Assembly (NCBI GenBank): GCA_965204375.1
Contig: OZ241986.1
Coordinates: 2,048,001-2,112,000 of the forward strand
DNA from: Candidatus Latescibacterota bacterium
Lineage (GTDB): Bacteria > Latescibacterota > UBA2968
Direction: 5' to 3'
Length of the DNA stretch: 64,000 bases
Made by a program: the position numbers and the translations under genes. Below the pieces are notes generated by a model. That model was not told where the DNA came from, did not search any database, and saw only the letters and a list, made by a program, of their open reading frames with translations. Of this stretch, positions 2,970 to 17,577 are shown in pieces. Numbering within the stretch: position 1 is the first letter of the stretch; the number at the start of each line of letters is the position of its first letter.

Positions 2970-3017
2970 AGCAGGAGGGCAAAAGCGATAAGCAGAAAAG
3001 CGCAAGATGATGTGTTG

Positions 3018-3046
3018 CCTGTCTGTTCCCGCCTCTGGCAGACAGG
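3018..3046. repeat. Short palindrome CCTGTCTG-N13-CAGACAGG
   Basis: Perfect 8-bp inverted repeat in intergenic DNA, directly followed by an inverted copy of the CATCTGCGTC motif. Confidence 0.55.
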
Positions 3047-3071
3047 TGGACGCAGATGAAAAGATTGAAAT

Positions 3072-3293
3072 ATGGATAAAAGACTTTTAGAAAATCCTAC
3101 CGGGATTGTCATCGGAAGCAAAACTTCTGGTGATCGTGCAGCCGGTCTTGTTCAGTTAGTCCAGTCATGGATTGATGAGGGCGATACTGACGAACAGCGG
3201 GAAACACTCGAGTACCTCATTCACGCTTTGGATGAAGACCGACTCTCCAATCGCAAGCTCTTTCCGAAGAAACTGAAAGGAAAGAGTTGGTAA
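3072..3293 (+). CDS. Small hypothetical protein, possible orphan antitoxin
   Basis: 73 aa; W..E.D..EQRETLEYLI.ALDEDRLS.RKLF resembles small proteins I recall upstream of PIN toxins; no toxin follows. Confidence 0.55.
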   Translation: MDKRLLENPTGIVIGSKTSGDRAAGLVQLVQSWIDEGDTDEQRETLEYLIHALDEDRLSNRKLFPKKLKGKSW

Positions 3294-3330
3294 GCCAGAA
3301 GTACTGCACAGTTCTATAAGGGATAACAGA

Positions 3331-4557
3331 ATGACAGTGCAAAATGGACCGTTGCCGAAGGGATGGCGGGAAGTGCGGCTAAATAACGTCGCCTCTATTA
3401 AAACTGGGCCTTTTGGCACACAACTGCATCAGCGCGATTATGTTCAATCTAACGGGACGCCAATAGTCACGGTTGAGCATTTGAGCGAAAGGGGACTCAT
3501 ACATAAAAATTTGCCTTTAGTATCTCATCATGACAAACAAAGATTGAGTCAATATCTCATTCAGGAAGGCGATATTGTTTTTAGCCGCGTTGGATCAGTT
3601 GATCGAAGTGCTTTGGTTTCAAAAGGCGAAGATGGATGGCTTTTTTCAGGTCGTCTATTGCGGGTAAGACCCAAGAAATGTGATGTATATAGCTCATATT
3701 TAAATTACTTTTTTCATACACGAAAATTTAGACACCATATGAAAAGCATTGCGGTTGGTGGAACTATGCCTTCAATAAATACCAGCATATTGAGCAATGT
3801 CATTATTCATCTTCCTTCTCTGGATCAACAAAAAGCCATTGCGTCGTTGCTGGAAAAATGGGACACGGCCATTGAGAAAACCGAAGCACTGATAGAGGCG
3901 AAGGAGAAGCGGTTTAAGTGGTTGCTGAAAACACTCATCAGCGACCAGCAGGATAATCCTGAATGGCAGCAGGTGAAATTGACGGAGGTTGGTGTAATCC
4001 ACTCTGGTGGAACGCCATCAACCCGAGACAGTAGCTACTGGAATGGCGATATTCCCTGGCTCACGCCCTCAGAAGTCACCAGACTATCTGAAAAATACAT
4101 CAATTCTACTGAAAGACATATAACTCAAAAAGGACTTTCCCGTACAACATTACTTCCTGAAAACTGCCTTATTATATGCACCAGAGCCACTATAGGAAAC
4201 TGTTGCATTAACACGGTTCCTATGGCAATCAATCAGGGATTCAAATGTATTCAGCCTTGCAGACGCTATTCAGTCACATTCTTATACTATGCCTTCCTGT
4301 TATTGAAGACACGACTGATAAGATTGTCCTGTGGAAATACATTTGGCGAAGTTTCAAAGAAAGATTTTGCCAATATCCTCATATCCGTTCCGTCTCTATT
4401 TGAACAGAAAACTATTGCTGCACATCTGGACACAGCACAAGAGGAAATATATCTACTCAACCAACTCACCGAACAATACCGCACGCAAAAACGCGGATTG
4501 ATGCAGAAATTGCTGACGGGAGAATGGAGAATCACGCCAAATAAAAGAAAAAATTAA
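3331..4557 (+). CDS. hsdS: Type I R-M specificity subunit S (two TRDs)
   Basis: LPKGWREVRL start, TRD1 (TGPFG), central helical spacer (P..QQKAIA..L..WD..IE), TRD2 (GGTPST), C-terminal KRGLMQKLLTG. Confidence 0.96.
   Translation: MTVQNGPLPKGWREVRLNNVASIKTGPFGTQLHQRDYVQSNGTPIVTVEHLSERGLIHKNLPLVSHHDKQRLSQYLIQEGDIVFSRVGSVDRSALVSKGEDGWLFSGRLLRVRPKKCDVYSSYLNYFFHTRKFRHHMKSIAVGGTMPSINTSILSNVIIHLPSLDQQKAIASLLEKWDTAIEKTEALIEAKEKRFKWLLKTLISDQQDNPEWQQVKLTEVGVIHSGGTPSTRDSSYWNGDIPWLTPSEVTRLSEKYINSTERHITQKGLSRTTLLPENCLIICTRATIGNCCINTVPMAINQGFKCIQPCRRYSVTFLYYAFLLLKTRLIRLSCGNTFGEVSKKDFANILISVPSLFEQKTIAAHLDTAQEEIYLLNQLTEQYRTQKRGLMQKLLTGEWRITPNKRKN
4493..4511 (+). repeat. hsdS 3'-tail core, copy 1 (GCGGATTGATGCAGAAATT)
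   Basis: Identical 19-mer also at 4966-4984 and 5931-5949. Confidence 0.95.
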
Positions 4558-4568
4558 AATGGACTTTT

Positions 4569-4853
4569 ATGGCAGATCAGGAGGATATGATGAGAAATTT
4601 TAGAATTATCGTTGAAAGATATTCCGATGGCTATGTGGGATATCCGCTCGGATTGAAGGGGGTCGTCATTGGGCTAGGAGATACTTATGAAGAGGCATTG
4701 GCAGATGTAAAATCTGCTATTCGGTTTCATATTGAGACGTTTGGTAAAGAAGCGTTTGATGAAGAGATTGTTGACGGGAAAGTGGAGGGTAAAACCAAAT
4801 ACAAAGGCGAGGATGTGAATTTTATACAAAAAGGAGCGACCAGCCTCAAATGA
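4569..4853 (+). CDS. HicB-like antitoxin (no hicA partner)
   Basis: IIVE...DGYVGYP..L.G....GDTYEEALADVKSAI HicB-fold motif; start may be at 4587 or 4590. Confidence 0.8.
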   Translation: MADQEDMMRNFRIIVERYSDGYVGYPLGLKGVVIGLGDTYEEALADVKSAIRFHIETFGKEAFDEEIVDGKVEGKTKYKGEDVNFIQKGATSLK

Positions 4854-4955
4854 GGAGGATTACTGAAAAGGAGCAATCCTCACTGGTCACTAATATGATC
4901 ATGTGCCATTATGCTGCATTTGTCAACCAAGTAAATGCTTAAAACGAAAAAATTA

Positions 4956-5018
4956 ACTCAAAAATGCGGATTGATGCAGAAATTACTCACTGGACAATGG
5001 AGAGTGAGCAGGCAATAA
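4956..5018 (+). pseudogene. Detached hsdS 3'-tail, copy 2
   Basis: Reads TQKCGLMQKLLTGQWRVSRQ* versus HsdS TQKRGLMQKLLTGEWRITPNKRKN*. Confidence 0.92.
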
Positions 5019-5071
5019 AAAGGACATTGTATGAAAAAAATTCCAAAAATTGGATTTATAGGAGATACCAA

Positions 5072-5923
5072 ATGAATTGGAAAGACTACGAAAAAGAAGT
5101 GTATCAATATTTCGCACAGATGTACCCTGAAGCTGAAATTACTTACGATGCGAAAATTACAGGTCTCTATTCAAAAGAAGAACGCCAAGTAGATGTGTTA
5201 ATCGAAGATGAGGTTGCAGGAATGCCAATCAAGATTGCGGTGGATGCAAAGTATTTCTCGCGAAAAGTAGATATTAAATGCGTCGAATCGTTCATCTCAA
5301 TGATAGGAGATATAGGTGCAAATCAGGGGCTATTAATAACTCAAAAAGGATATTCGGACGCAGCAATCAAGCGCGCCCATTATGGACCTGATAAGATCGA
5401 GCTTGATGTGTTAAACTTCGAAGATTTACAAAATCATCAAGGCTTGGGAGCTATCCCTTATTCAGGCGAGAATGCCATATTATTATCTGCCCCTTTTGGT
5501 TGGGTAATCGATAACAAAAGACGACCGGGACTCCTCGCTTGTCTTTATCAACGAGGCTTGGATCTTAAAAAAGCGCAAGAAAATTTAGAATGGATGTATC
5601 TAAATTTTTGGCATAAAGACGAAAAAGCTTCATCTATCGTCAAACTTGTTAAAATGCAAAATAAAAACTTGGAAGCCCGGCATACAAATTTATGTATAAA
5701 CGAACGGCGTTCACCTAAAAGAACTGATAAAAGAAATACATATATTAAAGTAGTTAATTCGGATCAGCTACCTTGTCAAGAAATCACAGGATATATCGAC
5801 TGTGACGAATTTATAGTATTTTTTGTACTGTTTACAAAAAAAGAGTTGGAAAGCAGAAATTTGCGAAAACTCGCATACATTCTTAAATACGCAACCCCAA
5901 CAAAAATTGCTTTCAGAAATTAG
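5072..5923 (+). CDS. Mrr-like PD-(D/E)xK restriction endonuclease with an unknown C-terminal domain
   Basis: MNWKDYEKEV..RQVDVLI..IAVDAK..KVDIKCVESF..GLLITQKGYSDAA; RBS GGAG at 5061; start moved from 4964; AT-rich. Confidence 0.85.
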   Translation: MNWKDYEKEVYQYFAQMYPEAEITYDAKITGLYSKEERQVDVLIEDEVAGMPIKIAVDAKYFSRKVDIKCVESFISMIGDIGANQGLLITQKGYSDAAIKRAHYGPDKIELDVLNFEDLQNHQGLGAIPYSGENAILLSAPFGWVIDNKRRPGLLACLYQRGLDLKKAQENLEWMYLNFWHKDEKASSIVKLVKMQNKNLEARHTNLCINERRSPKRTDKRNTYIKVVNSDQLPCQEITGYIDCDEFIVFFVLFTKKELESRNLRKLAYILKYATPTKIAFRN

Positions 5924-5929
5924 AAGGCA

Positions 5930-6001
5930 AGCGGATTGATGCAGAAATTGCTGACCGGGAAATGGCGAGTTAAGGAGCAGAAAAGGTCATGCAGAACATA
6001 G
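5930..6001 (+). pseudogene. Detached hsdS 3'-tail, copy 3
   Basis: Reads SGLMQKLLTGKWRVKEQKRSCRT*; overlaps the start of the next gene. Confidence 0.92.
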
Positions 6002-7806
6002 ATTTTTCTCAAATTCAGAGCCATAACGGAAGTCAAAGCAAAGGATTTGAAGAACTGGTATGTCAGTTGGCACGTCTCTCGAAACCGGAAAATGCCAAAG
6101 AATTTATTCGCAAAGACGGAGCGGGAGGGGATGCAGGAGTAGAATGCTATTGGAAATTACAGGATGGCTCTGAACAGGCTTGGCAAGCTAAATACTTTCT
6201 AAAACCATTAGGCTCTTCGCAGTGGAATCAGATTTCTGGATCTGTTAAATCTGCGTTAAGTAAACATCCAGATTTAACCAAGTATTATATCTGTTTGCCT
6301 AAAGATAGAAATGATAGCCGTCGATCAAGCACACAAGGCAGGCAGATTACCTCTGAATTGGACAAATGGAACCAGTACGTAGAGAAATGGAAAGCGATAG
6401 CTGCTACGAAATCCATGCAGGTTGAGTTTGAATACTGGGGCGAACATGAAATACTCTTGATGTTGCAAAGGGATACCTGTGATTTTGCTGGCATAGCCAA
6501 GTACTGGTTTGGAACACCAACTCCTCGTCCAACAGATATTTTGCCTTATTGGTATTTACCTACGGACCTTGTTGACCAAAAAATTAAACATGAAACCAAC
6601 CTGACCTTTGTCAGACCTCAAGCCGCGGAGTTGGCGCGGCGGTTAAAAGAACCTCGGCGATTCATTCAAGTCGTATCGGGAGCGAGGCAGGTCGGCAAAA
6701 CAACCCTTGCATTGCAAGTGGCAGACCAGAGCACACTGCCATATCACTTTGCCAGCGCAGATGAACCGACACTTCGTGGCAACGAATGGATTGAATCTCA
6801 ATGGGAAGAGGCCCGATTGCTTGCCACGAGTTCAAAAAGCAAAGGAGCCTTACTCATCTTAGATGAAGTGCAAAAAATTCCACATTGGGCTGAAATGGTC
6901 AAGTACCTTTGGGATGAAGATACCCGAAAAAAAACATTGGTGAAAACAGTATTGCTCGGCTCTGCTCCGATTTTAATCGGGTATGGACTGACAGAAAGCC
7001 TTGCGGGACGTTTTGAAATCCTGCACATGCCACACTGGAGCTTTTCCGAAATACAGGAAGCCTTCGGATGGGATCTGAACCAATATCTCTTTTACGGTGC
7101 CTATCCAGGTGCCGCGCCATTGATAAAACAACCGCTCCGCTGGTCGCGCTACATCATAGACTCTCTCATAGAAACAACTGTCGCACGCGACGTACTTTTG
7201 CTTTCTCGCGTTGACAAACCGGCATTGCTTCGGCGGTTATTTGAACTGGGCTGTGCCTATTCAGGACAAATCCTTTCCTACACAAAAATGATAGGCCAAC
7301 TTCAGGATGCTGGGAACACAACCACACTTGCCCACTACCTCGACCTGCTTTCAGGCGCCGGCGTACTCACCGGATTGCACAAATACGCGGGCGACACAGC
7401 GCGGCGCCGGGGGTCCAGCCCCAAGTTTCAAGTCTTCAACACCGCGTTGATAACCGCACAATCTGACATGACGCAGGCAGAAGCCTTTGCAGACCGCGAA
7501 TTTTGGGGACGCTTAACAGAGTCCGCAGTGGGCGCACACCTGATCAACGCATCCGCTGGCGGTACTTGTGAAGTATTTTATTGGCGGGAGCGCAACCGAG
7601 AAGTGGATTTTGTCTTGCGAAAAGGAAAGAAACTCGTGGCAATAGAAGTAAAAAGCGGGCGCACAACCACTTCGTTCCCTGGCATGGAATCTTTCTCCAA
7701 ATTTTTCAAACCAGGTCGCAGGTTAATCGTCGGTTCCGGTGGCATTTCTCTCGAACGATTTCTCTCAACACCCGTGGAATATTGGATAAATCTATCAAAA
7801 CTATAA
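5989..7806 (+). CDS. Fusion: N-terminal Mrr-like nuclease-type domain + AAA_14 ATPase + DUF4143
   Basis: N-term FEELVCQL..GGDAGVE..WQAKYF; Walker A GARQVGKT; Walker B LILDEVQ; SLAGR; C-term EVDFV..AIEVKSG. Confidence 0.8.
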   Translation: MQNIDFSQIQSHNGSQSKGFEELVCQLARLSKPENAKEFIRKDGAGGDAGVECYWKLQDGSEQAWQAKYFLKPLGSSQWNQISGSVKSALSKHPDLTKYYICLPKDRNDSRRSSTQGRQITSELDKWNQYVEKWKAIAATKSMQVEFEYWGEHEILLMLQRDTCDFAGIAKYWFGTPTPRPTDILPYWYLPTDLVDQKIKHETNLTFVRPQAAELARRLKEPRRFIQVVSGARQVGKTTLALQVADQSTLPYHFASADEPTLRGNEWIESQWEEARLLATSSKSKGALLILDEVQKIPHWAEMVKYLWDEDTRKKTLVKTVLLGSAPILIGYGLTESLAGRFEILHMPHWSFSEIQEAFGWDLNQYLFYGAYPGAAPLIKQPLRWSRYIIDSLIETTVARDVLLLSRVDKPALLRRLFELGCAYSGQILSYTKMIGQLQDAGNTTTLAHYLDLLSGAGVLTGLHKYAGDTARRRGSSPKFQVFNTALITAQSDMTQAEAFADREFWGRLTESAVGAHLINASAGGTCEVFYWRERNREVDFVLRKGKKLVAIEVKSGRTTTSFPGMESFSKFFKPGRRLIVGSGGISLERFLSTPVEYWINLSKL

Positions 7807-7862
7807 TTCATCTGCATTCATCTGCGCCCATCTGCGTCCATCTGCGGATACATCTGCGGATA
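7807..7862 (+). repeat. Degenerate 10-bp tandem repeat (CATCTGCGTC-like, 5 units)
   Basis: CATCTGC at 7809, 7819, 7829, 7839 and 7851; same family at 27444-27487. Confidence 0.9.
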
Positions 7863-7878
7863 AAACAGGAACAAAGCA

Positions 7879-10800
7879 ATGCCTACCTTCCCCTTCAGTG
7901 AAAAACACCTCTCCCAGATCCCCGCCCTGCAACAGCTAATGAACCTGGGCTACCGGTATCTATCCCCTGACCAGGCGATGGTAGAACGCGGTGGTCGCGC
8001 CTCCAATGTGCTGCTGGAGAACATCTTGCGTGATCAGCTTAAAAAAATAAACCGCATTCATTACAAAGGCGACATGTATCTTTTCAGCGAAGAGAATATT
8101 CAATCCGCCATTCAGAAAATCAAAAATGTTCAATACGATGGCTTACAAAAAACAAACGAAGTGATATACGACCTGATAACACTTGGCACATCACTTGAAC
8201 AAACCATTGAGAGCGATTCCAAAAGTTATACCCTGAACTATATCGACTGGAAAAATCCCGCGAACAATGTATTTCACGCCACAGCAGAATTTTCCGTTGA
8301 ACGCTCCCGCAGCATGGAAACCGCAAGACCCGACATTGTACTGTTTGTGAATGGCATTCCCCTTGTCGTAATCGAATGCAAAGGCCCCGATGTAGATGTG
8401 GATCAGGCCATATCTCAAACAATCCGAAATCAAGGCGAAGAATATATCCCGAGACTCTTTATTTACGCGCAGTTATTATTGGCTATAAACAAAAATGAGG
8501 CGAAGTACGCAACGGTAGGAACTTCAAAGGCGTTCTGGAGCATTTGGGACGAAATGGAAGATTCTACTCACGAAGTAAATGCCAGCGTCAATAACCCCCT
8601 TTCTGCTGAAGACAAAGACGCCCTGTTTCGCGGCGATTTCGCCCTGGCACAACCACACTTTGCCGCACTTGAAAGCACAGGCGACCGACTGCTCACGGAA
8701 CAGGACAAATGTCTTTACAGTCTATGCCGTCCAGAGCGTCTATTGGAACTGATTTACGGCTTTATCGTCTTTGACCTTGGCATCAAAAAAATTGCCCGAT
8801 ACCAGCAGTTCTTTCTCGTCCGTTCCGCAGTAAAACGCATCAAACAGATAGATAATACGGGCCGTCGCCAGGGTGGCATTGTCTGGCACACACAGGGATC
8901 CGGAAAGTCCATCACAATGGTCATGCTCGCTCGTGCTCTGGCTCTGGACCTCGAGATGAACAACTCCCGAATGATTCTCGTTACAGACCGCAAAGACCTG
9001 GATAAACAACTCGGCAACACCTTTGCGGCATGTGGACTGATCATGGAACGAGCGACAACCGGACGAAATCTGGTTAAACACATCAAAAACAAAGTGGGCA
9101 TCATCACGACGCTGATCAATAAATTTGATACGGCACTTTCTGCCGAAAAATACGTTGATGATTCAGCGAATATTGTCGTCCTCGTAGATGAAAGCCACCG
9201 CACAAACTTCGGTTCTCTCGCAGCGCGCATGAGGCAGATGTTACCCAATGCTTGTTACATCGGCTTCACGGGCACGCCATTGATGAAAAAAGAGAAGAAC
9301 AGTTTTGTCAGATTTGGAGGTCTTATTGAACCGCATTACTCCGTGCGACAGGCGATAAAAGACAAGGCAGTGGTTCCCCTCCTTTACGAAGGTCGGCATG
9401 TAGAGATAGAGCAAAACGAAAACGCGGTTGATTTGTGGTTCGAACGCCATACGGTAAACCTGACAGACCAACAAAAAGCCGACTTGAAAAGAAAATATTC
9501 CCGTGCAGATGCACTCAACCAGGCAGACCAGGCCGTCTATATGCGCGCGTTTGACATAAGCACCCACTACCGCGTAAACTGGCAGGACACCCCATTTAAG
9601 GCGCAACTTGTAGCACCCAACAAAGCAACTGCCCTGAAGTATCGAGAATTTTTCAACGAGATAAATACTGTTTCATCGGAGGTCGTTATTTCTCCCCCGG
9701 ATACGCGAGAGGGACATGAGGAGGTAGGCGAAGAGACAGATGAGGTCAACGCATTCTGGAACACAATGATGGCCCGTTATGGTTCTGAGGATCAATACAA
9801 CAAGCAAATCATCGCACAGTTCAAACACGCGGACGAACCGGAAATTTTGATTGTAGTAGATAAACTCATCACCGGATTTGACGCACCTCGCAATACCGTG
9901 CTCTATCTGTGCCGCAAGTTGCGCGAACACACATTGCTCCAGGCCATTGCCCGGGTTAATCGCGTACACGAAAATAAGGAATTTGGCTATGTCGTCGATT
10001 ATGCCAATGTATTGGGTGAACTGGACAAAGCATTAGACGAATACGACGCGCTTGCGGATTTTGACGGAAAGGACCTCGCCGATGTCCTGGTCTCCATCCA
10101 GGAAGAAATACAAAAATTGCCGCAACGTTACTCAGACCTCTGGGACATATTCAAAGAAATTAAAAACTCTCGCGATGAAGAACGCTACGAAGTCCTGCTA
10201 TCCGATGACGCATTGCGGGAAGATTTTTATGAACGCCTCACGGAGTACGGCAAGACCCTTGCCATCGCGCTTTCATCTGAGCAGTTTATTATGCAGACCG
10301 ACGAGGCGCAACTCAAACGCTACAAAAGCGACCTCCTGCGTTTTGAGAAACTGAGAAAGGCTGTCAGACTGCGCTACGCCGAAGCCATTGATTACGGCGA
10401 CTATGACTCCAAAATTAAAAAGTTGCTAAACACGCATATTCAAGCAAACGAGGTCACCCAATTAAACGATCCCGTGGATATTTTTGATGACAATACCTTT
10501 CCTATGGTCAGAGAGGCGCAAGGCATTTATCGCACCCAAAACGCGGCGGCAAACGCCGATTATATCGCGCATGTCACCAAGCGCAAAATTATCGAAAATA
10601 TGGACAAAGACCCCGCTTTTTATGAGAAATTTTCAAAGCTCATTCAGGAGGCAATCGACGATTTCAGGCAGCAACGGATATTAGCCCTCGACTATCTGCA
10701 AAAGGTGAGAGATATTCGAGACAAGGTCGAAAACACACAACGCGACGATGTCCCCGATGAGATTCGCAATAACCGTGAAGCCTGTGCGTATTTTGGCGCA

Positions 10801-11073
10801 ATTAAACCTTGTTTGTCAAAAATTGATATAGATGAAAGCCAGACCGATGACATAGCAATAAAAACAACGCTTGCCATTCAATCTGCGATAGATAAAAATT
10901 GGAAGGTAGATTTTTGGAACGATAGCGACGCGCAAAATGACATAAAAAATGAGATGGATGACTTCTTCTACGATGTGGTGGAAGACGTATATGGCATTGA
11001 TTTATCGTCAGAGCAGATGGACGAAATGATCAGCCAAACAATGCAGATCGCCAAATTCTGGAGGCCCACTTAA
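7879..11073 (+). CDS. hsdR: Type I restriction endonuclease subunit R
   Basis: 1064 aa; PD..NGIPLVVIECK nuclease, WHTQGSGKS, DESH, GFTGTP, TGFDAP, QAIARVNR helicase motifs. Confidence 0.97.
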   Translation: MPTFPFSEKHLSQIPALQQLMNLGYRYLSPDQAMVERGGRASNVLLENILRDQLKKINRIHYKGDMYLFSEENIQSAIQKIKNVQYDGLQKTNEVIYDLITLGTSLEQTIESDSKSYTLNYIDWKNPANNVFHATAEFSVERSRSMETARPDIVLFVNGIPLVVIECKGPDVDVDQAISQTIRNQGEEYIPRLFIYAQLLLAINKNEAKYATVGTSKAFWSIWDEMEDSTHEVNASVNNPLSAEDKDALFRGDFALAQPHFAALESTGDRLLTEQDKCLYSLCRPERLLELIYGFIVFDLGIKKIARYQQFFLVRSAVKRIKQIDNTGRRQGGIVWHTQGSGKSITMVMLARALALDLEMNNSRMILVTDRKDLDKQLGNTFAACGLIMERATTGRNLVKHIKNKVGIITTLINKFDTALSAEKYVDDSANIVVLVDESHRTNFGSLAARMRQMLPNACYIGFTGTPLMKKEKNSFVRFGGLIEPHYSVRQAIKDKAVVPLLYEGRHVEIEQNENAVDLWFERHTVNLTDQQKADLKRKYSRADALNQADQAVYMRAFDISTHYRVNWQDTPFKAQLVAPNKATALKYREFFNEINTVSSEVVISPPDTREGHEEVGEETDEVNAFWNTMMARYGSEDQYNKQIIAQFKHADEPEILIVVDKLITGFDAPRNTVLYLCRKLREHTLLQAIARVNRVHENKEFGYVVDYANVLGELDKALDEYDALADFDGKDLADVLVSIQEEIQKLPQRYSDLWDIFKEIKNSRDEERYEVLLSDDALREDFYERLTEYGKTLAIALSSEQFIMQTDEAQLKRYKSDLLRFEKLRKAVRLRYAEAIDYGDYDSKIKKLLNTHIQANEVTQLNDPVDIFDDNTFPMVREAQGIYRTQNAAANADYIAHVTKRKIIENMDKDPAFYEKFSKLIQEAIDDFRQQRILALDYLQKVRDIRDKVENTQRDDVPDEIRNNREACAYFGAIKPCLSKIDIDESQTDDIAIKTTLAIQSAIDKNWKVDFWNDSDAQNDIKNEMDDFFYDVVEDVYGIDLSSEQMDEMISQTMQIAKFWRPT

Positions 11074-11783
11074 TGTCGGAAACTCAGTACGCCATCACAT
11101 ACGCGGGCGAATCCATTCCCTTTCATCTGAGTTATTCCAACAGGAAGTCTATCGAAATTGCCGTTCATCCAGATGGCTTAGTGACAGTAAAAGCACCACT
11201 GGAAACAGATAAAGATCTCATCGAGCGTCGCGTTTACAAGCGCGCGCGTTGGATAAGACGCCAGATCCGCTATTTCGCACAGTTTGACCCGCGGACTCCA
11301 GAGCGGCGGTTTGTCGGAGGTGAAAGCCACCTGTACCTGGGCAAAAAGTATCGGCTAAAGATAAGACAGGCCGAAACGGACAAGGTCTTGCTAAAACACG
11401 GTTTTTTTTACATCGCAACGGTTAATAACGAGCCAGAACATATCGCGATATTGCTTGAAGAATGGTACCGAAGCAAGGCGAATATTTATTTTTCAAAAGT
11501 GTTTGAAGAATGCTGGCGTCCCTTTCAAAAAAAAGAGGTGGATAAACCCACCCTCAAAATTCGCAATATGAAAACGCGCTGGGGCAGTTTGAGCAGCAGA
11601 GGCAGCCTGACATTGAATTTGGAACTCATCAAAGCACCCAGAGAATGTATTGAATACGTCGTTATCCACGAACTATGTCACCTGTTTCATCCCAATCACG
11701 GAGCAGAGTTTTATAACTTGCTTGAGCGCATGCTGCCCGATTGGATAAAACGAAAGCACAAATTGGAAATGGCACTGTCTTAG
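11073..11783 (+). CDS. M48/YgjP (DUF45) zinc metallopeptidase-like protein
   Basis: RWGS, YVVIHELCHL..NHG..F; 1-bp overlap (TAATG) with hsdR. Confidence 0.92.
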   Translation: MSETQYAITYAGESIPFHLSYSNRKSIEIAVHPDGLVTVKAPLETDKDLIERRVYKRARWIRRQIRYFAQFDPRTPERRFVGGESHLYLGKKYRLKIRQAETDKVLLKHGFFYIATVNNEPEHIAILLEEWYRSKANIYFSKVFEECWRPFQKKEVDKPTLKIRNMKTRWGSLSSRGSLTLNLELIKAPRECIEYVVIHELCHLFHPNHGAEFYNLLERMLPDWIKRKHKLEMALS

Positions 11784-11820
11784 AATCAGTTCTGAAGCCA
11801 CATCAAAAAGGACCCCTAAA

Positions 11821-12696
11821 ATGCTCACTCCAAATTGGAATATCCTCCCAAAAGAAACCATCCGGGAATTCGATGAAAAGGGCTGTCTAATTGTGCGCCG
11901 GGCACTCGATAAAAAAACGGTCGCACACCTTCTCGAAATATGCGACCGCCTCATCGATAGCGACAAAAAAACAAACCGACAAACGCGTGAGAATGGATAT
12001 TACGATGGCTTTCGCAACTGCATCGCCTTAGACGATGCCTTTTTGCCACTCCTCACACACCCCAAAATTTTCCCCATGGTCGTACAATTTCTCGGCGCGT
12101 ATCTTCACCTCACTACCTCACACCTGATATACAAACACCCCGACCCGCCCGGCACGCCTGATTTTGCTCGAGCACCAAACTGGCATCGCGATTACGGCCG
12201 CCTCAACAGCGACCTCCTGCACGCAGCCCCTCGGGGCATGCTCAAGTGCGCTTATTATCTCACGGATCTCACTGAACTCAATGCAGGCGCCACACTCGTC
12301 GTGCCCGGTAGCAATCTCTTGCGAGAACCTCTCGACATCCCCCCAAATGGCGACCCAGAAGGCGCATTAGAACCGCATCTCGAACCCGGAGACTGTCTCA
12401 TATTTGAAAACCGAACCTATCACGCTGGCGGTGTCAACCTATCCGACCAGACCCGCAAAGTCATCATGTTCGGTTATGGCTACCGATGGCTCGCCCCCAT
12501 AGATTACCGCGTACAATCCCAATCGCTATTGGCCAAACTCGATCCATTGGGCCAGTACCTCCTTGGCGAAACACTGGTCAAAACAGAAGAATATCAAACC
12601 AGCGGCGGAGAAACCCCGCTCAAACCCTGGTGCGAACAAAACAACCTGCCCCTCGTCAGACCACCAGTATGGCAAGAGGATCTCGCCCTTGCCTGA
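11821..12696 (+). CDS. Phytanoyl-CoA dioxygenase (PhyH) family 2OG-Fe(II) oxygenase
   Basis: WHRD, GAT.VVPGS, PGDCLIF..RTYHAGG.N.S..RK. Confidence 0.9.
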   Translation: MLTPNWNILPKETIREFDEKGCLIVRRALDKKTVAHLLEICDRLIDSDKKTNRQTRENGYYDGFRNCIALDDAFLPLLTHPKIFPMVVQFLGAYLHLTTSHLIYKHPDPPGTPDFARAPNWHRDYGRLNSDLLHAAPRGMLKCAYYLTDLTELNAGATLVVPGSNLLREPLDIPPNGDPEGALEPHLEPGDCLIFENRTYHAGGVNLSDQTRKVIMFGYGYRWLAPIDYRVQSQSLLAKLDPLGQYLLGETLVKTEEYQTSGGETPLKPWCEQNNLPLVRPPVWQEDLALA

Positions 12697-12703
12697 TTAC
12701 CAA

Positions 12704-14020
12704 TCACAACATGGTCAATTTTTGCGACAAATTTTCAACAGGTGTAAACACCCACTGTTTTCCAGCTTTTATCGCATTGAGCAATCCATGAGCCTGTAAA
12801 TTCAGCAAATCTGTACGTGCGGTCTGATAAACCACATTGTGGCTATTCTGGTGGCCATAGATTGTATATCGATGGCGGGGATGACGAAGTGCGTGACTCA
12901 AAAGTGCGCGTTGTCGATGATTGAACACGGCAGAATTTTTCAACACCTGATCAATACCTTCAAATAGTCGCGTTTTGCGTTTGATATATTGATGAAATAC
13001 ATCCACAGTTTGCTCAATAACGCGCAATTGATACAATATAAAATACGTCAAATCATTGTCATCCGTCTCAGTGTACAAAAAGGATCGGCTATATTTTGCG
13101 GGAGCCTTGCGCAAAATTTGGGAAATAGACAAAAACTTAAACAGCCCGTAGCCATTGTGTAGCATCGACCAGTAGAACAATGCGCGTGCGGTGCGTCCAT
13201 TGCCATCGACAAATGGGTGGTCATATCCCAACCAGAAATGCAACATAATCGCTCGAAGCGCCGGATGAATAAACCAATCTGGCGTTTTGCCATTGGCAAA
13301 ATCGCACATTGCCTGCAGGCGCTCGGGCAGTTCTTCGGCAGACGGCGGACGGTGCAAAACCTCACCAGTAACAAGATCGGCAACATGAACAGATTCTTTT
13401 GCATACCGAAAACGACCTATTCCCGAAGGATCGTCCAGAGTATCTTCCGTCACCAGGCGGTGCAGATGAAAAATCAGGTCTTGAGTTAAGGGCTGATCTT
13501 TCAACTCGCCAATTGCATTCATGGTGAGATAATTATTCAAAATCATCTGCTCACTGCGATTCTGTGGGACTCGTCCAGTGCGAAGCATTTCTCTGGCGAC
13601 CTGACGTGTGGTTGTGGCACCTTCGAGTTGGCTGGATGTAATGGCCTCTTCAATCAGTGAATCCACGAAGTAGATATTGGAGAACTCAGATGAGATAGCC
13701 TGTTCGAGCAGACCAGAAAAACCAGGCCTTCCCAGATCAATTTGATGCAAATACTTGAGAATAGGGTCTATAATCAAAACACGAAAAGGGATTCCCGAGC
13801 AATCGACAAGTGGGATTTCTTTCCACAATGCCCCACGGTATAGCTTAATGCCCAACCACCACTCGCGATGTGTCAGTCCTCCGGGGGGCGTTCGATATCG
13901 CAACTCATCCCAATGCAAGTAGTCAGACATATCTACTTCCGAAATCAAATGTGGAAGTCGTCCAACTTCCACATCGCGCATCAGATCATCAAAAGCTGGT
14001 GGTGTTTGAGGTCTTTTCAT
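12704..14020 (-). CDS. Fic family protein with a C-terminal HTH-like region
   Basis: Catalytic HPFVDGNGRTAR; inhibitory-type SSQLEG upstream; C-term VVYQTARTDLL.L; start 14020 (or 14050). Confidence 0.92.
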   Translation of the reverse strand: MKRPQTPPAFDDLMRDVEVGRLPHLISEVDMSDYLHWDELRYRTPPGGLTHREWWLGIKLYRGALWKEIPLVDCSGIPFRVLIIDPILKYLHQIDLGRPGFSGLLEQAISSEFSNIYFVDSLIEEAITSSQLEGATTTRQVAREMLRTGRVPQNRSEQMILNNYLTMNAIGELKDQPLTQDLIFHLHRLVTEDTLDDPSGIGRFRYAKESVHVADLVTGEVLHRPPSAEELPERLQAMCDFANGKTPDWFIHPALRAIMLHFWLGYDHPFVDGNGRTARALFYWSMLHNGYGLFKFLSISQILRKAPAKYSRSFLYTETDDNDLTYFILYQLRVIEQTVDVFHQYIKRKTRLFEGIDQVLKNSAVFNHRQRALLSHALRHPRHRYTIYGHQNSHNVVYQTARTDLLNLQAHGLLNAIKAGKQWVFTPVENLSQKLTML

Positions 14021-14021
14021 A

Positions 14022-14177
14022 ATCGCTGTCCATTCATATTGAATGCTCATACTAATCTCATACTAATATATGTAAATTTAGTATGAAAAGCTATCTATAC
14101 TTGTCCATATCGCTGTCCATTCATATTGAATGCTCATACTAATCTCATACTAATATATGTAAATTTAGTATGAAAAG
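14022..14177. repeat. Perfect 69-bp direct repeat (14022-14090, 14109-14177) containing TCATACTAA direct and inverted half-sites
   Basis: Read base by base; 87-bp period; lies between divergent fic and SDR genes. Confidence 0.95.
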
Positions 14178-14262
14178 TCACCCATACTTATTCATCAAAA
14201 TATGGGGTTTGGGCACAAAACGTCGTATATTGTGAAACATCAAAATAAAAAGGACTATATTA

Positions 14263-15108
14263 ATGAAATTACTCAAAGAAAAAGTAGCGATCATCACGGG
14301 TGGCGCAAGCGGCATTGGTCGTGCCACTGCTCGCCTCTTTGTCGAAGAAGGCGCGCAAGTCGTCATCGCAGACATCCAGGAAGATAAGGGTCAGACCGTC
14401 GCGAAAGAACTCGGCTCCAACGCCATCTTCCAGCACACCAATGTGAGCCGGGAACCCGATATCAGAGCGATGATTAACCTCGCGGTCTCGCACTTTGGAC
14501 GCCTGGATTGTCTCTTTAACAACGCCGGATACGGCGGTGTAGCGGGACCTGTTGAAGAAACATCCATGCGGGGTTTTGACAAAACCGTAAGCATTCTCCT
14601 GCGCGGCGTCTTCATGGGCATCAAACACGCGGCGCCCATAATGAAAAAACAGGGATCGGGCAGCATCATCAGCACGGGTTCCGTCGCCGGCCTTCGCACG
14701 GGCTATGCGCCGCATGTGTACAGCGCGTGTAAAGCCGCCGTCATACACCTCACCCGAACAACGGCAATGGAATTGGGACCTCACAACATCCGCGTCAACT
14801 GTATATGCCCTGGCGGCATTGCCACCCCCATATTTGCCCCGGCATTGGACCTCGCGCCCGAAGAATCTGACAAAGCATATCAACTCATGACCGAAAAACT
14901 CGCTGGTGGACAGCCCATTCACCGCGCGGGTCAACCCGAAGACATCGCACACGCAGCCCTCTATCTCGCCAGTGATCACGCCTCATTTGTCAACGGTCAC
15001 GCCCTCGTCGTCGATGGCGGCCTCATCGGCGGCCAAAAATGGGATAGATCCTGGATCGCCCGAGAAGGGCTTACGTCTGATGAGGACATACGTGAAGGAG
15101 GAGAATGA
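14263..15108 (+). CDS. Short-chain dehydrogenase/reductase
   Basis: TGGASGIG, NNAG, YSACK catalytic motif, IRVNCICPG. Confidence 0.95.
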   Translation: MKLLKEKVAIITGGASGIGRATARLFVEEGAQVVIADIQEDKGQTVAKELGSNAIFQHTNVSREPDIRAMINLAVSHFGRLDCLFNNAGYGGVAGPVEETSMRGFDKTVSILLRGVFMGIKHAAPIMKKQGSGSIISTGSVAGLRTGYAPHVYSACKAAVIHLTRTTAMELGPHNIRVNCICPGGIATPIFAPALDLAPEESDKAYQLMTEKLAGGQPIHRAGQPEDIAHAALYLASDHASFVNGHALVVDGGLIGGQKWDRSWIAREGLTSDEDIREGGE

Positions 15109-16101: not shown

Positions 16102-17577
16102 ATGGTGAAAAAACTTTTCCGAATTGCAATAATTACCATCGCCATCCCTTCAATCGCCCTATCGCAGAACTTACCCGACCTGACCGCACTGAGCGAAACG
16201 ATTGAGCCACAGGTATCGTCAATTCGCTCGCTCAACTTTGTCCAGCCATATACAATACGCTATCAGACAAACGAGGAAATCACCGCATTCATAAACGATG
16301 AGTTCAATCAATCTGTACCGCTAATAATTCGTCAAAACTACGATCTATTAATCCGCGCCATTGGATTGCATCACGGTGGTGTTCCCTTCGACTTTGAAGC
16401 TATGAAAAGAACCTTGCAGGAACAGGTTGGAGCCTATTACGATCCCTCCACCCGTTCTGTCAACTTCCCGATAGGATCAATTTCCCCACAAGTGCTTCGA
16501 GTGATTATAGCACATGAACTCACGCATGTGCTACAGGACCAGCACTTTGGACTCGACCGCTTGCAAAACAGCGCGACAAACAGCGATCAATTATTAGCCC
16601 ATCAAGCTCTGGCCGAAGGGGACGCGACGCTGGTGGAATTCCTCTGGTCTTTTGATCGCGCAGGACAAGCGGTATCAGATGCAGAACTACAGCGAATCAT
16701 AAACAATATTATCAACACGGCCGTCAATGAAACGGACGAAATCCCTGATTTTCTATTTGAACAGCAAATTGGAATCTATTTCCGCGGAATGGCCTTTGTA
16801 TTTGAACTGAAAAAACGCGGAGGTTGGGCAACAGTGAATCGCGCGTACACCACTCCGCCAATGTCGATGGAACACATCCTCCATCCGGACAAATACTTCG
16901 CGGGGGAATCTATCGAGGAGATCGCACTTCCAGATTTGGCAAATGAATCCTTCGCAGGAAATTGGGAATTGCTGGATAGAGATACACTGGGCGAATTTGG
17001 TCTCAGAATCATCTTCAATACCTTTGATGTCAACACCCCATCACACGCAGCGGCCGCAGGCTGGCATGGCGACCAGTATGTCGTCCTCAAACACCGCCAG
17101 GATAATACACCCGCGCTCGTCCTGTTCACGACATGGGATACGGAACAGGACGCAACAGAGTTCAAAACTGCCTACGAAGACGTGCTCGCAATAAAACACC
17201 GTGGATCCACAGACTTCAAGATTGAGCAACAGGGGACAGATGTGTTAATCTCTGAGTCATCTCGGGATCTCGACCTGTTATTTGCGTACCTCGAAAAAGT
17301 TCGATTTACCCCCACGGTCGCACTCGAAATTTTCGATTTTGACGGCGATCACATAGTCGGCTTCTCGGACTTCCTCATGTTCGCCGCCCATTTTGGCAAG
17401 AATAGTTCTGACCCGGATTTTGACCAGCGATTCGACATCGATGCAGACGGTATGGTCGGCTTCACAGACTTCCTCGCATTCGCTTCTGCTTTTGGGAAAC
17501 AAATTACGCGCAACTCAAAACCCGCTGTAGTGATTGACCCACACATTATCCACCGCACGTTGGGATTTGTCCGATAA
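16102..17577 (+). CDS. Secreted zincin-like metallopeptidase with C-terminal dockerin-like EF-hand pair
   Basis: Signal peptide; HELTHVLQDQ..ALAEGDAT; DFDGDHIVGFSDF and DIDADGMVGFTDF. Confidence 0.8.
   Translation: MVKKLFRIAIITIAIPSIALSQNLPDLTALSETIEPQVSSIRSLNFVQPYTIRYQTNEEITAFINDEFNQSVPLIIRQNYDLLIRAIGLHHGGVPFDFEAMKRTLQEQVGAYYDPSTRSVNFPIGSISPQVLRVIIAHELTHVLQDQHFGLDRLQNSATNSDQLLAHQALAEGDATLVEFLWSFDRAGQAVSDAELQRIINNIINTAVNETDEIPDFLFEQQIGIYFRGMAFVFELKKRGGWATVNRAYTTPPMSMEHILHPDKYFAGESIEEIALPDLANESFAGNWELLDRDTLGEFGLRIIFNTFDVNTPSHAAAAGWHGDQYVVLKHRQDNTPALVLFTTWDTEQDATEFKTAYEDVLAIKHRGSTDFKIEQQGTDVLISESSRDLDLLFAYLEKVRFTPTVALEIFDFDGDHIVGFSDFLMFAAHFGKNSSDPDFDQRFDIDADGMVGFTDFLAFASAFGKQITRNSKPAVVIDPHIIHRTLGFVR

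Follow-up and report, generated by a model that had tools for sequence, protein, structure and literature searches.

The stretch of DNA studied here (the window; 64,000 nucleotides (nt), positions 2048001-2112000 of the 6.34-Mb genome of a Candidatus Latescibacterota bacterium, assembly GCA_965204375.1, hereafter G000) contains an intact type I restriction-modification (R-M) operon, whose hsdM, hsdS and hsdR genes lie in the same orientation and give Pfam matches over full-length frames of 504, 408 and 1064 amino acids (aa). Between hsdS and hsdR, the 3′ end of hsdS recurs as a short 'tail' next to genes of defence type. A preliminary description of this DNA had read the arrangement as an integron-like cassette array with the hsdS tail as its attachment site. 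Our comparison with related genomes indicates that a tail and the gene behind it form a real unit and that such units are stacked in the hsd locus, probably as scars of serial hsdS replacement. The parts of the operon from hsdM to hsdR are the following, in coordinates of the window ('orphan' denotes a tail without an hsdS body and 'cargo' the gene that follows a tail):

22-1536, + strand: hsdM, methylase subunit, 504 aa (Pfam N6_Mtase 2.8e-102, HsdM_N 4.1e-28)
1533-2003, + strand: truncated rhuM-like gene, PADLOC PDC-S05 (5e-53, residues 11-123)
3331-4557, + strand: hsdS, 408 aa, two target-recognition domains (Pfam Methylase_S 4.9e-45, two stretches)
4493-4557, + strand: tail 1, the own tail of hsdS, reading RGLMQKLLTGEWRITPNKRKN and a stop
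4559-4569, + strand: remainder of an earlier cargo gene of G012 type (homology to G012), with its start codon and first bases
4570-4765, + strand: 5′ portion of a hicB-like antitoxin unit; the gene starts at 4587 and is native over 58-59 codons
4756-4818, + strand: tail 2, degenerate, joined to hicB inside the core at TTGATGAAGA
4819-4955, + strand: spacer with a 30-codon open reading frame (ORF; 4850-4942), common to G018 by homology
4956-5018, + strand: tail 3, orphan, reading CGLMQKLLTGQWRVSRQ and a stop; hsdS homology from 10 nt before GCGG
5019-5042, + strand: intergenic DNA, then 12 nt from the start of an earlier cargo gene (G006/G020 type)
5041-5930, + strand: Mrr unit, with its own ribosome-binding site, a complete Mrr_cat gene (5072-5923; Pfam 2.7e-9) and 7 nt
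5931-6001, + strand: tail 4, orphan; homology to the G009 hsdS tail and cargo from exactly 5931
5989-7806, + strand: 605-aa defence candidate, an Avs2-like N-terminal nuclease domain fused to an AAA_14 and DUF4143 ATPase
7807-7860: array of CATCTGCG-type units before hsdR, with copies at other gene borders of the locus
7879-11073, + strand: hsdR, restriction subunit, 1064 aa (Pfam SWI2_SNF2 2.2e-75, HSDR_N 1.1e-43)

A pattern scan of the window reproduced the three exact copies of the 19-mer GCGGATTGATGCAGAAATT that had been reported before, at 4493, 4966 and 5931 on the + strand. No further match was present in the window at up to three mismatches, and none of 100 dinucleotide shuffles gave three matches. 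In the HsdS frame, the exact copies end in QKRGLMQKLLTGEWRITPNKRKN, QKCGLMQKLLTGQWRVSRQ and KASGLMQKLLTGKWRVKEQKRSCRT, each with a separate stop. A repeat finder added a fourth, degenerate copy at 4751-4805 with 71% identity to tail 1 over 55 nt; this tail 2 (4751-4818) translates to an end reading KKRLMKRLLTGKWRVKPNTKARM before its stop, and it overlaps the end of the hicB frame in a different frame. The third exact core begins 7 nt past the Mrr stop codon (TAG, 5921-5923), as had been stated. In the layout first given (tail-hicB-tail-Mrr-tail-nuclease/ATPase-hsdR), hicB is only a 5′ fragment, and tail 2 has to be added.

All tail copies are direct and on the + strand, and none is inverted. 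Orphan tails carry no Methylase_S domain; they have 19-25 nt of perfect identity and share about 50 nt overall. Differences in the ten codons L-M-Q-K-L-L-T-G-x-W are almost all synonymous, and four pairs of an orphan and the hsdS tail matched to it by its cargo show 14 synonymous against 1 non-synonymous codon differences. The previous suggestion of an origin from different hsdS alleles, and not from a simple duplication, is supported. The identity of the 19-mer is not special to the array, since its first 16 nt are identical in most hsdS tails of the genus and GGATTGATGCAGAA is also present in unrelated metagenomic hsdS genes.

The evidence that a tail and the gene behind it belong together comes from collinear segments in other genomes:

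Window 5931-7898 with G009 8632-10593: 91%, homology from exactly GCGG
Window 4756-5001 with G018 7443-7688 (hsdS tail, 215-nt step, orphan tail): 94.3%
G002 8987-13398 with G004 8309-12712: 88%, homology from exactly GCGG
G018 7643-13737 with G057 8304-14446: 75%, homology from 10 nt before GCGG
G013 3827-4492 with window 5934-6599: 92%, homology from 3 nt past GCGG

Because an orphan and its cargo are thus collinear with an hsdS 3′ end and its cargo elsewhere (in G009, G018, G004 and G057), 'tail plus next gene' is a real unit, and in this respect the preliminary description is borne out. The start of the cargo gene falls within a range from 13 nt upstream to 37 nt downstream of the tail stop, which explains the lasting linkage of the hsdS end to the next gene. 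Moreover, the starts of former cargo genes are kept behind tail 1 (G012 type) and tail 3 (G006/G020 type), with the present cargo beginning after them. Homology of the window to G012 covers 4456 to 4562 and so includes the first 4 nt of the G012 cargo ORF, whose start is 1 nt past the hsdS stop in both genomes. Similarly, window 4956-5042 corresponds to G006 8245-8331 (88.5%) and to G020 (87.4%), and the ATG at 5031, the cargo start of G006/G020 type, opens a 14-codon frame that ends in ATGA on the Mrr start.

The position of a unit differs between genomes. The tail with the ATPase gene (91% DNA identity of the 605-aa gene to G009) comes first after hsdS in G009 and is the last stacked unit in the window; the tail with the PIN-TPR pair is first in G057 and second in G018; and the tail with the G004 cargo is first in G004 and second in G002. 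All these shifts amount to no more than the addition of a new unit adjoining hsdS, with the older units nearer hsdR.

The tail may also have a role in expression of the cargo. Its M codon can open a mini-frame whose stop adjoins or overlaps the cargo start; the mini-frame of tail 3 (4974-5018) is followed by the frame at 5031-5075, that of tail 4 (5939-6001) overlaps the start of the next gene (ATG 5989) by 13 nt, and the TGA within GATTGATG is the stop of the upstream frame in both G002 and G013. Judged from these reading frames, a function of the tail as translational coupling relay is conceivable. A scan of 3000-8000 for promoters and terminators found 7 promoter-like sites (8.7 expected), none of them in a tail; the lone feature at a tail was a stem of 4-6 bp (CCGC..GCGG, 4479-4496), which we judged too weak to matter.

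To place the array among its relatives, we compared the loci of the hsdR-bearing genomes of the genus and of G057, which belongs to another family of the same class, together with a locus of G015 (L022) that came from a scan for Mrr. An hsdR orthologue is present in 12 of the 21 genomes of the genus, G000 included, with 79-97% aa identity in the 11 of the 20 others that have it. In 10 fetched loci, HsdM is matched over its full length, with 95-96% aa identity in G018, G002, G020, G004, G009, G012, G006 and G015, 86% in G001 and 88% in G057. The hsdM, hsdR, ygjP and phyH genes are conserved, and the gaps between hsdM and hsdS and between hsdS and hsdR vary in almost every genome. The contents of the hsdS-hsdR gap, or of what corresponds to it, are as follows:

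G009: the nuclease-ATPase gene only
G057: an HNH/PIN-TPR-GreABC pair, a 148-aa frame and a stand-alone PDC-S01 ATPase gene
G018: an orphan tail, the same PIN-TPR pair as in G057, a Mutator-family transposase gene and a ThsB-TIR fragment, followed by an ATPase fragment fused to the hicB leader, and hicB-hicA
G004: a 1409-aa frame, then the ATPase fragment of G018 type and hicBA
G002: an HNH_5 gene, an orphan tail and cargo of G004 type
G006: a 152-aa frame and a metallo-β-lactamase (MBL)-fold gene
G020: as G006, plus an IS3-type insertion
G012: an HNH_3-like gene
G001: a 494-aa frame
G013: an orphan tail before a nuclease head; no hsdS body was found on the 6.5-kb contig
G015: 26 hsdS codons, then an Mrr 3′ fragment joined to a TIR fragment
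G003: hsdM, hsdS, hsdR and ygjP lost; a rhuM fragment, a full Mrr gene (87% aa identity), a TIR fragment and the ATPase gene kept

Across loci, the cargo thus includes the PDC-S01 ATPase, the PIN-TPR-GreABC pair, HNH genes, an MBL-fold gene, the ThsB-TIR fragment, hicBA and insertion sequence (IS) elements, and the locus serves the genus as a hypervariable slot for defence-type genes. Tail-delimited variation of the cargo, which the preliminary description had predicted for relatives, is present. Two loci are decayed versions: the G003 remnant (L051) sits between the same chromosomal flanks, and that of G015 keeps hsdM and hsdR. The hsdS gene of G018 is interrupted by an antisense frame of 326 aa. 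The tail there continues the conserved 3′ region of hsdS without a break, but it does not belong to a working gene. IS elements lie within the locus in G018 (L006; 13808-15148, and a putative one at 5279-7505) and in G020 (L008; 8244-9456, frameshifted IS3-type), and they are not at tail borders.

The borders between the blocks are informative about how these arose. At the join of hicB and tail 2, the homology blocks of hicB and of the G018 tail overlap at 4756-4765 in TTGATGAAGA (TTGATG[A/C]AGA), which matches hicB at 10 of 10 positions and the tail at 9 of 10. The second join, between the ATPase fragment and the hicB leader of G018, lies in TGGCAGA[C/T]CAG (10 of 11), and the same two blocks adjoin each other in G004. 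In G015, the Mrr flank meets the TIR fragment in GAAGGCAA, over 8 nt. These three joins, at 8-11 nt of near-identity and with truncated genes, are illegitimate short-homology events and not site-specific products. The left join of the Mrr unit has only AATT in common.

Gene wrecks are indeed frequent at the locus. The hicB unit of the window is 98.5% identical to G018 16376-16571 and 97.4% identical to G004, where hicB-hicA adjoins hsdR in both cases, and it lacks its 3′ end and hicA: a tblastn search of the window with HicA found nothing (best E 0.63). In G018, the partner of hicB is identified by a HicA_toxin match (5.8e-9), the Pfam match of HicB itself being weak (0.023). The hsdS gene of G015 is reduced to 26 codons, and in G003, the hsd genes are gone while the cargo was kept.

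The tails themselves also seem to have been used after they came to lie between the genes. In run X1, from another metagenome, contigs join 4522 to 5961 and 4896 to 5931; judged from the two sides of each join, these are forms without the Mrr unit, with borders at tails. They may represent ancestral states or else deletions between tails. The spacer and the first 36 tail nt are common to tail 3 and the G018 orphan, which are then followed by different cargo, and the orphan of G002 is hybrid-like, with its first 28 nt as in tail 3 of the window and G004-type sequence afterwards. The X1 forms, the divergence behind tail 3 and the hybrid-like orphan together make it probable that exchange and deletion use the tails as short direct repeats.

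Taken together, the collinear modules, the short-homology joins, the truncated genes, the lack of a recombinase or structured site at the locus and the variants without Mrr lead us to favour the following history, which we consider more probable than any other. A new hsdS allele, together with the gene that followed it in the donor, would repeatedly have replaced the resident hsdS, by one-sided homologous and illegitimate recombination. The left crossover would lie in conserved upstream DNA, and the right join would be illegitimate, formed where a few bases happened to agree, at the resident hsdS tail or close to it, so that this tail and its cargo survive downstream as an orphan. Repetition of the event would yield hsdS[tail1]-hicB'-[tail2]-spacer-[tail3]-Mrr-[tail4]-ATPase-hsdR, with the newest unit adjoining hsdS, and the orphan tails would afterwards provide direct repeats through which cargo is deleted or exchanged from tail to tail. 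Selection for expression of the cargo and against long repeats would have trimmed the orphans back to the core. No dedicated recombinase would be involved.

Several observations do not fit easily with this history. The DNA of intact hsdS alleles is conserved over 35-45 nt upstream of the core, yet tail 4 and the orphans of G002 and G013 begin 0-4 nt from GCGG, and the orphan shared as tail 3 with G018 begins 10 nt before it; microhomology was looked for at the left edges of tail 4 and of the G002 and G013 orphans, and none was seen. Random illegitimate joins should scatter more than that. The borders of the Mrr unit are tight in two different surroundings, and the rhuM genes of G003 (L051) and G009 (L010) break after the same TACAAT with different partners, the Mrr unit in one and the relE unit in the other; recurrent precise breakpoints of this kind could point to a directed process. 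In addition, all orphans except tail 2 have kept the reading of an intact HsdS end, so they are either young or constrained. Possible reasons for the sharp edges at GCGG are later trimming bounded by the translation start of the cargo, selection against long repeats, or a directed process.

Outside the window, the Mrr unit occurs in G003 (full length) and in G015, where a 3′ fragment is left and homology ends at 5930. The proteins of six of eight related Mrr loci align up to residue 271-280 of 283. Mrr relatives of other phyla (L019, L021 and L024) were considered as a source of native flanking sequence and set aside, with no HsdM, HsdS or HsdR match in their 6-kb flanks.

The first alternative that we weighed is a cassette exchange that needs no recombinase. 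The tail would be a portable stretch of homology, and circles of tail and cargo would excise and re-insert by a single crossover of the Campbell type. We regard this as unlikely. In its favour, the tails repeat directly and are perfectly identical over 19-25 nt, forms without Mrr in run X1 have their borders at tails, cargo differs behind the shared spacer and 36 tail nt of tail 3 and the G018 orphan, the G002 orphan looks like a hybrid, and new units adjoin hsdS. However, every first junction between a cargo gene and a tail would still require an illegitimate event, and the X1 variants could simply be ancestral. Perfect identity over 19-25 nt is near the lower limit for efficient RecA recombination. 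Moreover, homologous crossovers should also hit the 35-45 nt upstream of the core, where the DNA of intact hsdS alleles of the genus is conserved, and this part is absent from the orphans. No circle or excision junction was found among assembled contigs, which were the only read evidence and cannot show rare excision products, starts or ends. That the array would be a working, reversible store rather than a pile of scars is equally unlikely in our view.

Quite unlikely is the decay of an array of several complete hsdS genes, whose bodies would have been deleted and whose 3′ ends would have been left between the accessory genes. Stepwise decay is what the orphan of G011 looks like, which belongs to another hsd family and retains two separate hsdS pieces, 44 nt of the second recognition domain and 105 nt of the conserved end. 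A half-size hsdS-like frame just upstream of hsdM and the frequency of duplicated hsdS loci according to a REBASE survey (PMC7394358) agree with it as well. But no orthologous locus fetched has a second complete hsdS between hsdS and hsdR, and the copies in the array are direct, not inverted. In addition, the collinearity of the orphans with the hsdS and cargo of other genomes speaks for the stacking of foreign blocks and not for local duplication. The half-size frame (2047416-2047886 of the genome, 194 aa, one Methylase_S domain, PF01420) lies directly before hsdM, and a similar match stands in front of hsdM in G057.

The G011 locus (L016, 15138-19635, minus strand) repeats the layout of the window in a second type I family: hsdS, a 178-aa membrane-like frame and a KwaB-like frame (0.0015, below the cut-off), followed by a remnant of hsdS that has an internal deletion and runs into the beginning of a further gene, and then by a Schlafen/AlbA_2 ATPase gene. 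In G017 (L015, 8315-10643), an hsdS remnant of about 110 nt, of the family studied here, stands directly before a patatin gene (1.1e-27) and a SMODS nucleotidyltransferase gene (5.9e-34), a pair that is, by its domains, of the type of a cyclic-oligonucleotide-based antiphage signalling system (CBASS-like). No hsdM or hsdR was found within 9 kb of this remnant. The hsdS remnants of G011 and G017 keep about 110-150 nt and do not stop at the core.

The sharp edges at GCGG could alternatively be taken at face value. The tail start GCGG ATTGATGCAG would then be a genuine capture point, where the end of an incoming gene is joined to the resident tail in a sequence-directed way, without long homology and without a linked integrase. 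We hold this to be a distinctly improbable explanation. If it were true, type I operons with this tail would be integron-like platforms that stack defence genes while hsdS is kept intact, and the three orphans with an edge at GCGG, the tight Mrr borders and the recurrent rhuM breakpoint would be the footprints of the process.

An integron-like, site-specific capture as proposed in the preliminary description is very unlikely. Under this scheme, a recombinase or nuclease recognizes the core GCGGATTGATGCAG and inserts tail and cargo, and hsdS is restored. In its favour, the left edges at GCGG are sharp in three independent orphans though the homology between alleles runs further, the units are compact, on the same strand and mostly promoterless, and several of the cargo genes encode nucleases (HNH, Mrr, Avs2-like). 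The locus lies at 2.05 Mb, however, and the profile search of the genome gave just two tyrosine recombinases, both Xer-sized (PF00589, frames of 297 and 308 aa at 3.37 and 4.26 Mb), and one serine recombinase (PF00239, at 0.67 Mb), all more than 1.3 Mb away. None was found in the 12 kb upstream of hsdM, as judged from a reading of the ORFs only; this region holds sulfatase-like and other housekeeping-looking frames besides the half-size hsdS-like frame. Mobility genes are likewise absent from the window locus. Nor did the tails look like attC sites: folding of tails 1, 3 and 4 on both strands (six folds) gave z-scores from -0.86 to +0.38 against 200 shuffles each. Inspection by eye of the right ends of the units and of other breakpoints found no shared motif. 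Moreover, tail 2 is a short-homology join that destroyed hicB, the two remnants in G011 and G017 begin far upstream of the core, and no stacking occurs among 31 genomes of the sister genus, 17 of which have a matching tail. The view of the conserved tail as an att-like site served by a recombinase is therefore not supported, as there is no linked enzyme and no structured site, joins are of short homology and longer remnants exist. Two known types of insertion were also considered and dropped: an IS200/IS605-type insertion beside TTGAT, since the edges lie 5′ of GCGG and not 3′ of TTGAT, and a XerCD/dif-type integration, since the edges lie 5′ of GCGG and the core is unlike a dif site.

Finally, an assembly artefact, with strain chimeras fused at the common 19-mer, is almost certainly not the explanation: the genome resembles a metagenome-derived single contig of a sample kind in which related strains co-occur, and the hsdS-to-hicB join (4529-4575) is bridged in run X19 only, which may be the source sample, but one X19 contig covers 3300-8000 (the entire array) and one contig of X21, a second sample, covers 4575-7848 (tails 2-4), both with zero differences and therefore making misassembly of tails 2-4 unlikely, while the structure of tail 2, spacer and tail 3 also stands in the single-contig genome G018 at 94% identity and comparable arrays exist in G002 and G011. 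The uncovered parts in X1 and X22 and the runs with a small share were not used as evidence.

Stacking of tails is confined to few genomes. We scanned 168 genomes of the phylum with a degenerate tail pattern at up to one mismatch and obtained a match in 41 of them. Pairs of tails on the same strand less than 2 kb apart occur in four (G000, G018, G002 and G011), all of the genus studied here; in the sister genus, the 17 genomes with at least one matching tail have it stacked in no case. Among metagenome contigs of the JGI, the core pattern gave 17 matches and no orphan, two of the matches being cut by the contig end; all 17 come from other bacteria and fall in normal hsdS ends or in central regions that are conserved.

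The locus is a type I operon with embedded defence genes and cassette-like variation, and it is neither an integron nor a phase-variable hsdS locus. Defence genes embedded in type I operons have been described (prrC, rloF, tgvAB and the immigration control region; PMC11411939, PMC12707154). As in EcoprrI with prrC, the Campylobacter rlo genes, tgvAB of Vibrio cholerae and the PADLOC PDC cases, defence-type genes stand inside an intact hsd operon here. However, those descriptions, in the portions available, mention neither repeated hsdS 3′ ends nor the stacking of several units, whereas up to four tails mark units in our case. Cassette-like variation at an anchor is known from the E. coli immigration control region (PMC12707154) and from the minimal mobile elements of Neisseria (PMC3787668). 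It shares with our locus the conserved flanks (here hsdM, hsdR, ygjP and phyH), the varied content and the lack of mobility genes. There, exchange through the flanks swaps the content; here, the older content and a copy of the 3′ end of the anchor are retained, for which an illegitimate join is needed.

Integron cassettes that encode defence systems have also been reported (bioRxiv 10.1101/2024.07.02.601686). Like these, our array consists of compact units on the same strand, with the newest beside the anchor and with defence cargo, but there is no IntI beside it and no attC-like site, genes are truncated at the borders and joins are of short homology. Phase-variable loci with several hsdS genes, such as the pneumococcal ivr and tvr loci, similarly have repeats in conserved hsdS segments as recombination substrates. 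They use inverted repeats and silent copies with recognition domains and often have a linked recombinase, whereas the copies here are direct, lack recognition domains and flank unrelated genes. In the accretion of integrative and conjugative elements (ICEs) and cis-mobilizable elements (CIMEs), direct repeats of a gene 3′ end are att sites made by an integrase that the element encodes. Direct 3′-end repeats separate the inserts and the gene stays intact in both situations; here, however, no integrase is present and the units are single genes.

Thus, the embedding of defence genes in type I operons and cassette-like variation at an anchor are known, and the stacking with orphan hsdS tails appears to be new. 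In a literature search that was not exhaustive and partly saw the sources in extract, we found no description of repeated hsdS 3′ ends between embedded genes, nor of how embedded defence genes arrive and pile up. The orphan tails resemble growth rings, in that blocks of an hsdS end and the next gene were added serially at the hsdS side and the source of each block can be traced to another genome. They also offer a search key, as a stray hsdS 3′ end with the gene that follows marked defence-type cargo in every case seen here (the CBASS-like pair of G017, the Kiwa-like pair and the Schlafen/AlbA_2 ATPase of G011, PIN-TPR-GreABC of G018, and Mrr and PDC-S01 of the window). Should the sharp edges at GCGG reflect a directed process, they would represent a new way to build gene-cassette arrays.

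The remaining features of the locus lie in the hsdM-hsdS gap and behind hsdR:

1907-2969, + strand: toxin-antitoxin unit in two copies with a 300-nt direct repeat, the first copy having the relE 3′ end only
3072-3293: small frame
11073-12696: ygjP-like and phyH-like genes (Pfam)
12704-14050, - strand: Fic gene, 448 aa, just past the operon (PADLOC SoFic 4.2e-41)

The genes between the hsd genes match defence or candidate families (PDC-S05, PDC-S01, the Avs2 N-terminal domain, Mrr_cat and a relE-type toxin) and are putative defence genes by these matches. Three genes of the window match PADLOC candidates (PDC-S05, PDC-S01 and, weakly, PDC-S02). The 605-aa protein matches PDC-S01 at 2e-174 (residues 207-599) and Avs2 at 4.7e-62 (residues 2-177). 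In G057 and G003, the ATPase exists as a separate gene, and the fusion point lies about 7 codons past the start of that gene; in G013, the nuclease head alone is fused to another protein.

The rhuM-like gene covers positions 1-53 of the 252 of the Pfam RhuM profile only. It is native to about residue 124-130 and continues into a relE 3′ remnant, with the boundary of the repeat at 1907. The repeat (1907-2206 and 2602-2901, 300 nt) has 79% identity; copy 1 consists of the relE 3′ end and the antitoxin gene (1907-2280), and copy 2 of a full relE (2317-2652; TIGR02683 match 2.5e-33) and the antitoxin gene (2649-2969). Tandem copies of relE-type toxin and antitoxin genes with 70-80% identity occur in this gap in the window and in loci L006-L012 and L022, with one to three antitoxin-gene copies per genome and often just the last 47 nt of relE before the antitoxin gene. 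These copies are the same kind of stacking as that of the hsdS tails.

A further array of CATCTGCG-type units, inverted, is at 3043-3060. Every relative also has such arrays, both before hsdR and at other borders between genes of the locus. Genome-wide, 705 copies of the octamer were counted where about 200 are expected, and there are about 155 arrays; the summed contig depth at 7696-7852 is 20-100x that of neighbouring bins. These units look like a dispersed repeat, possibly a regulatory one.

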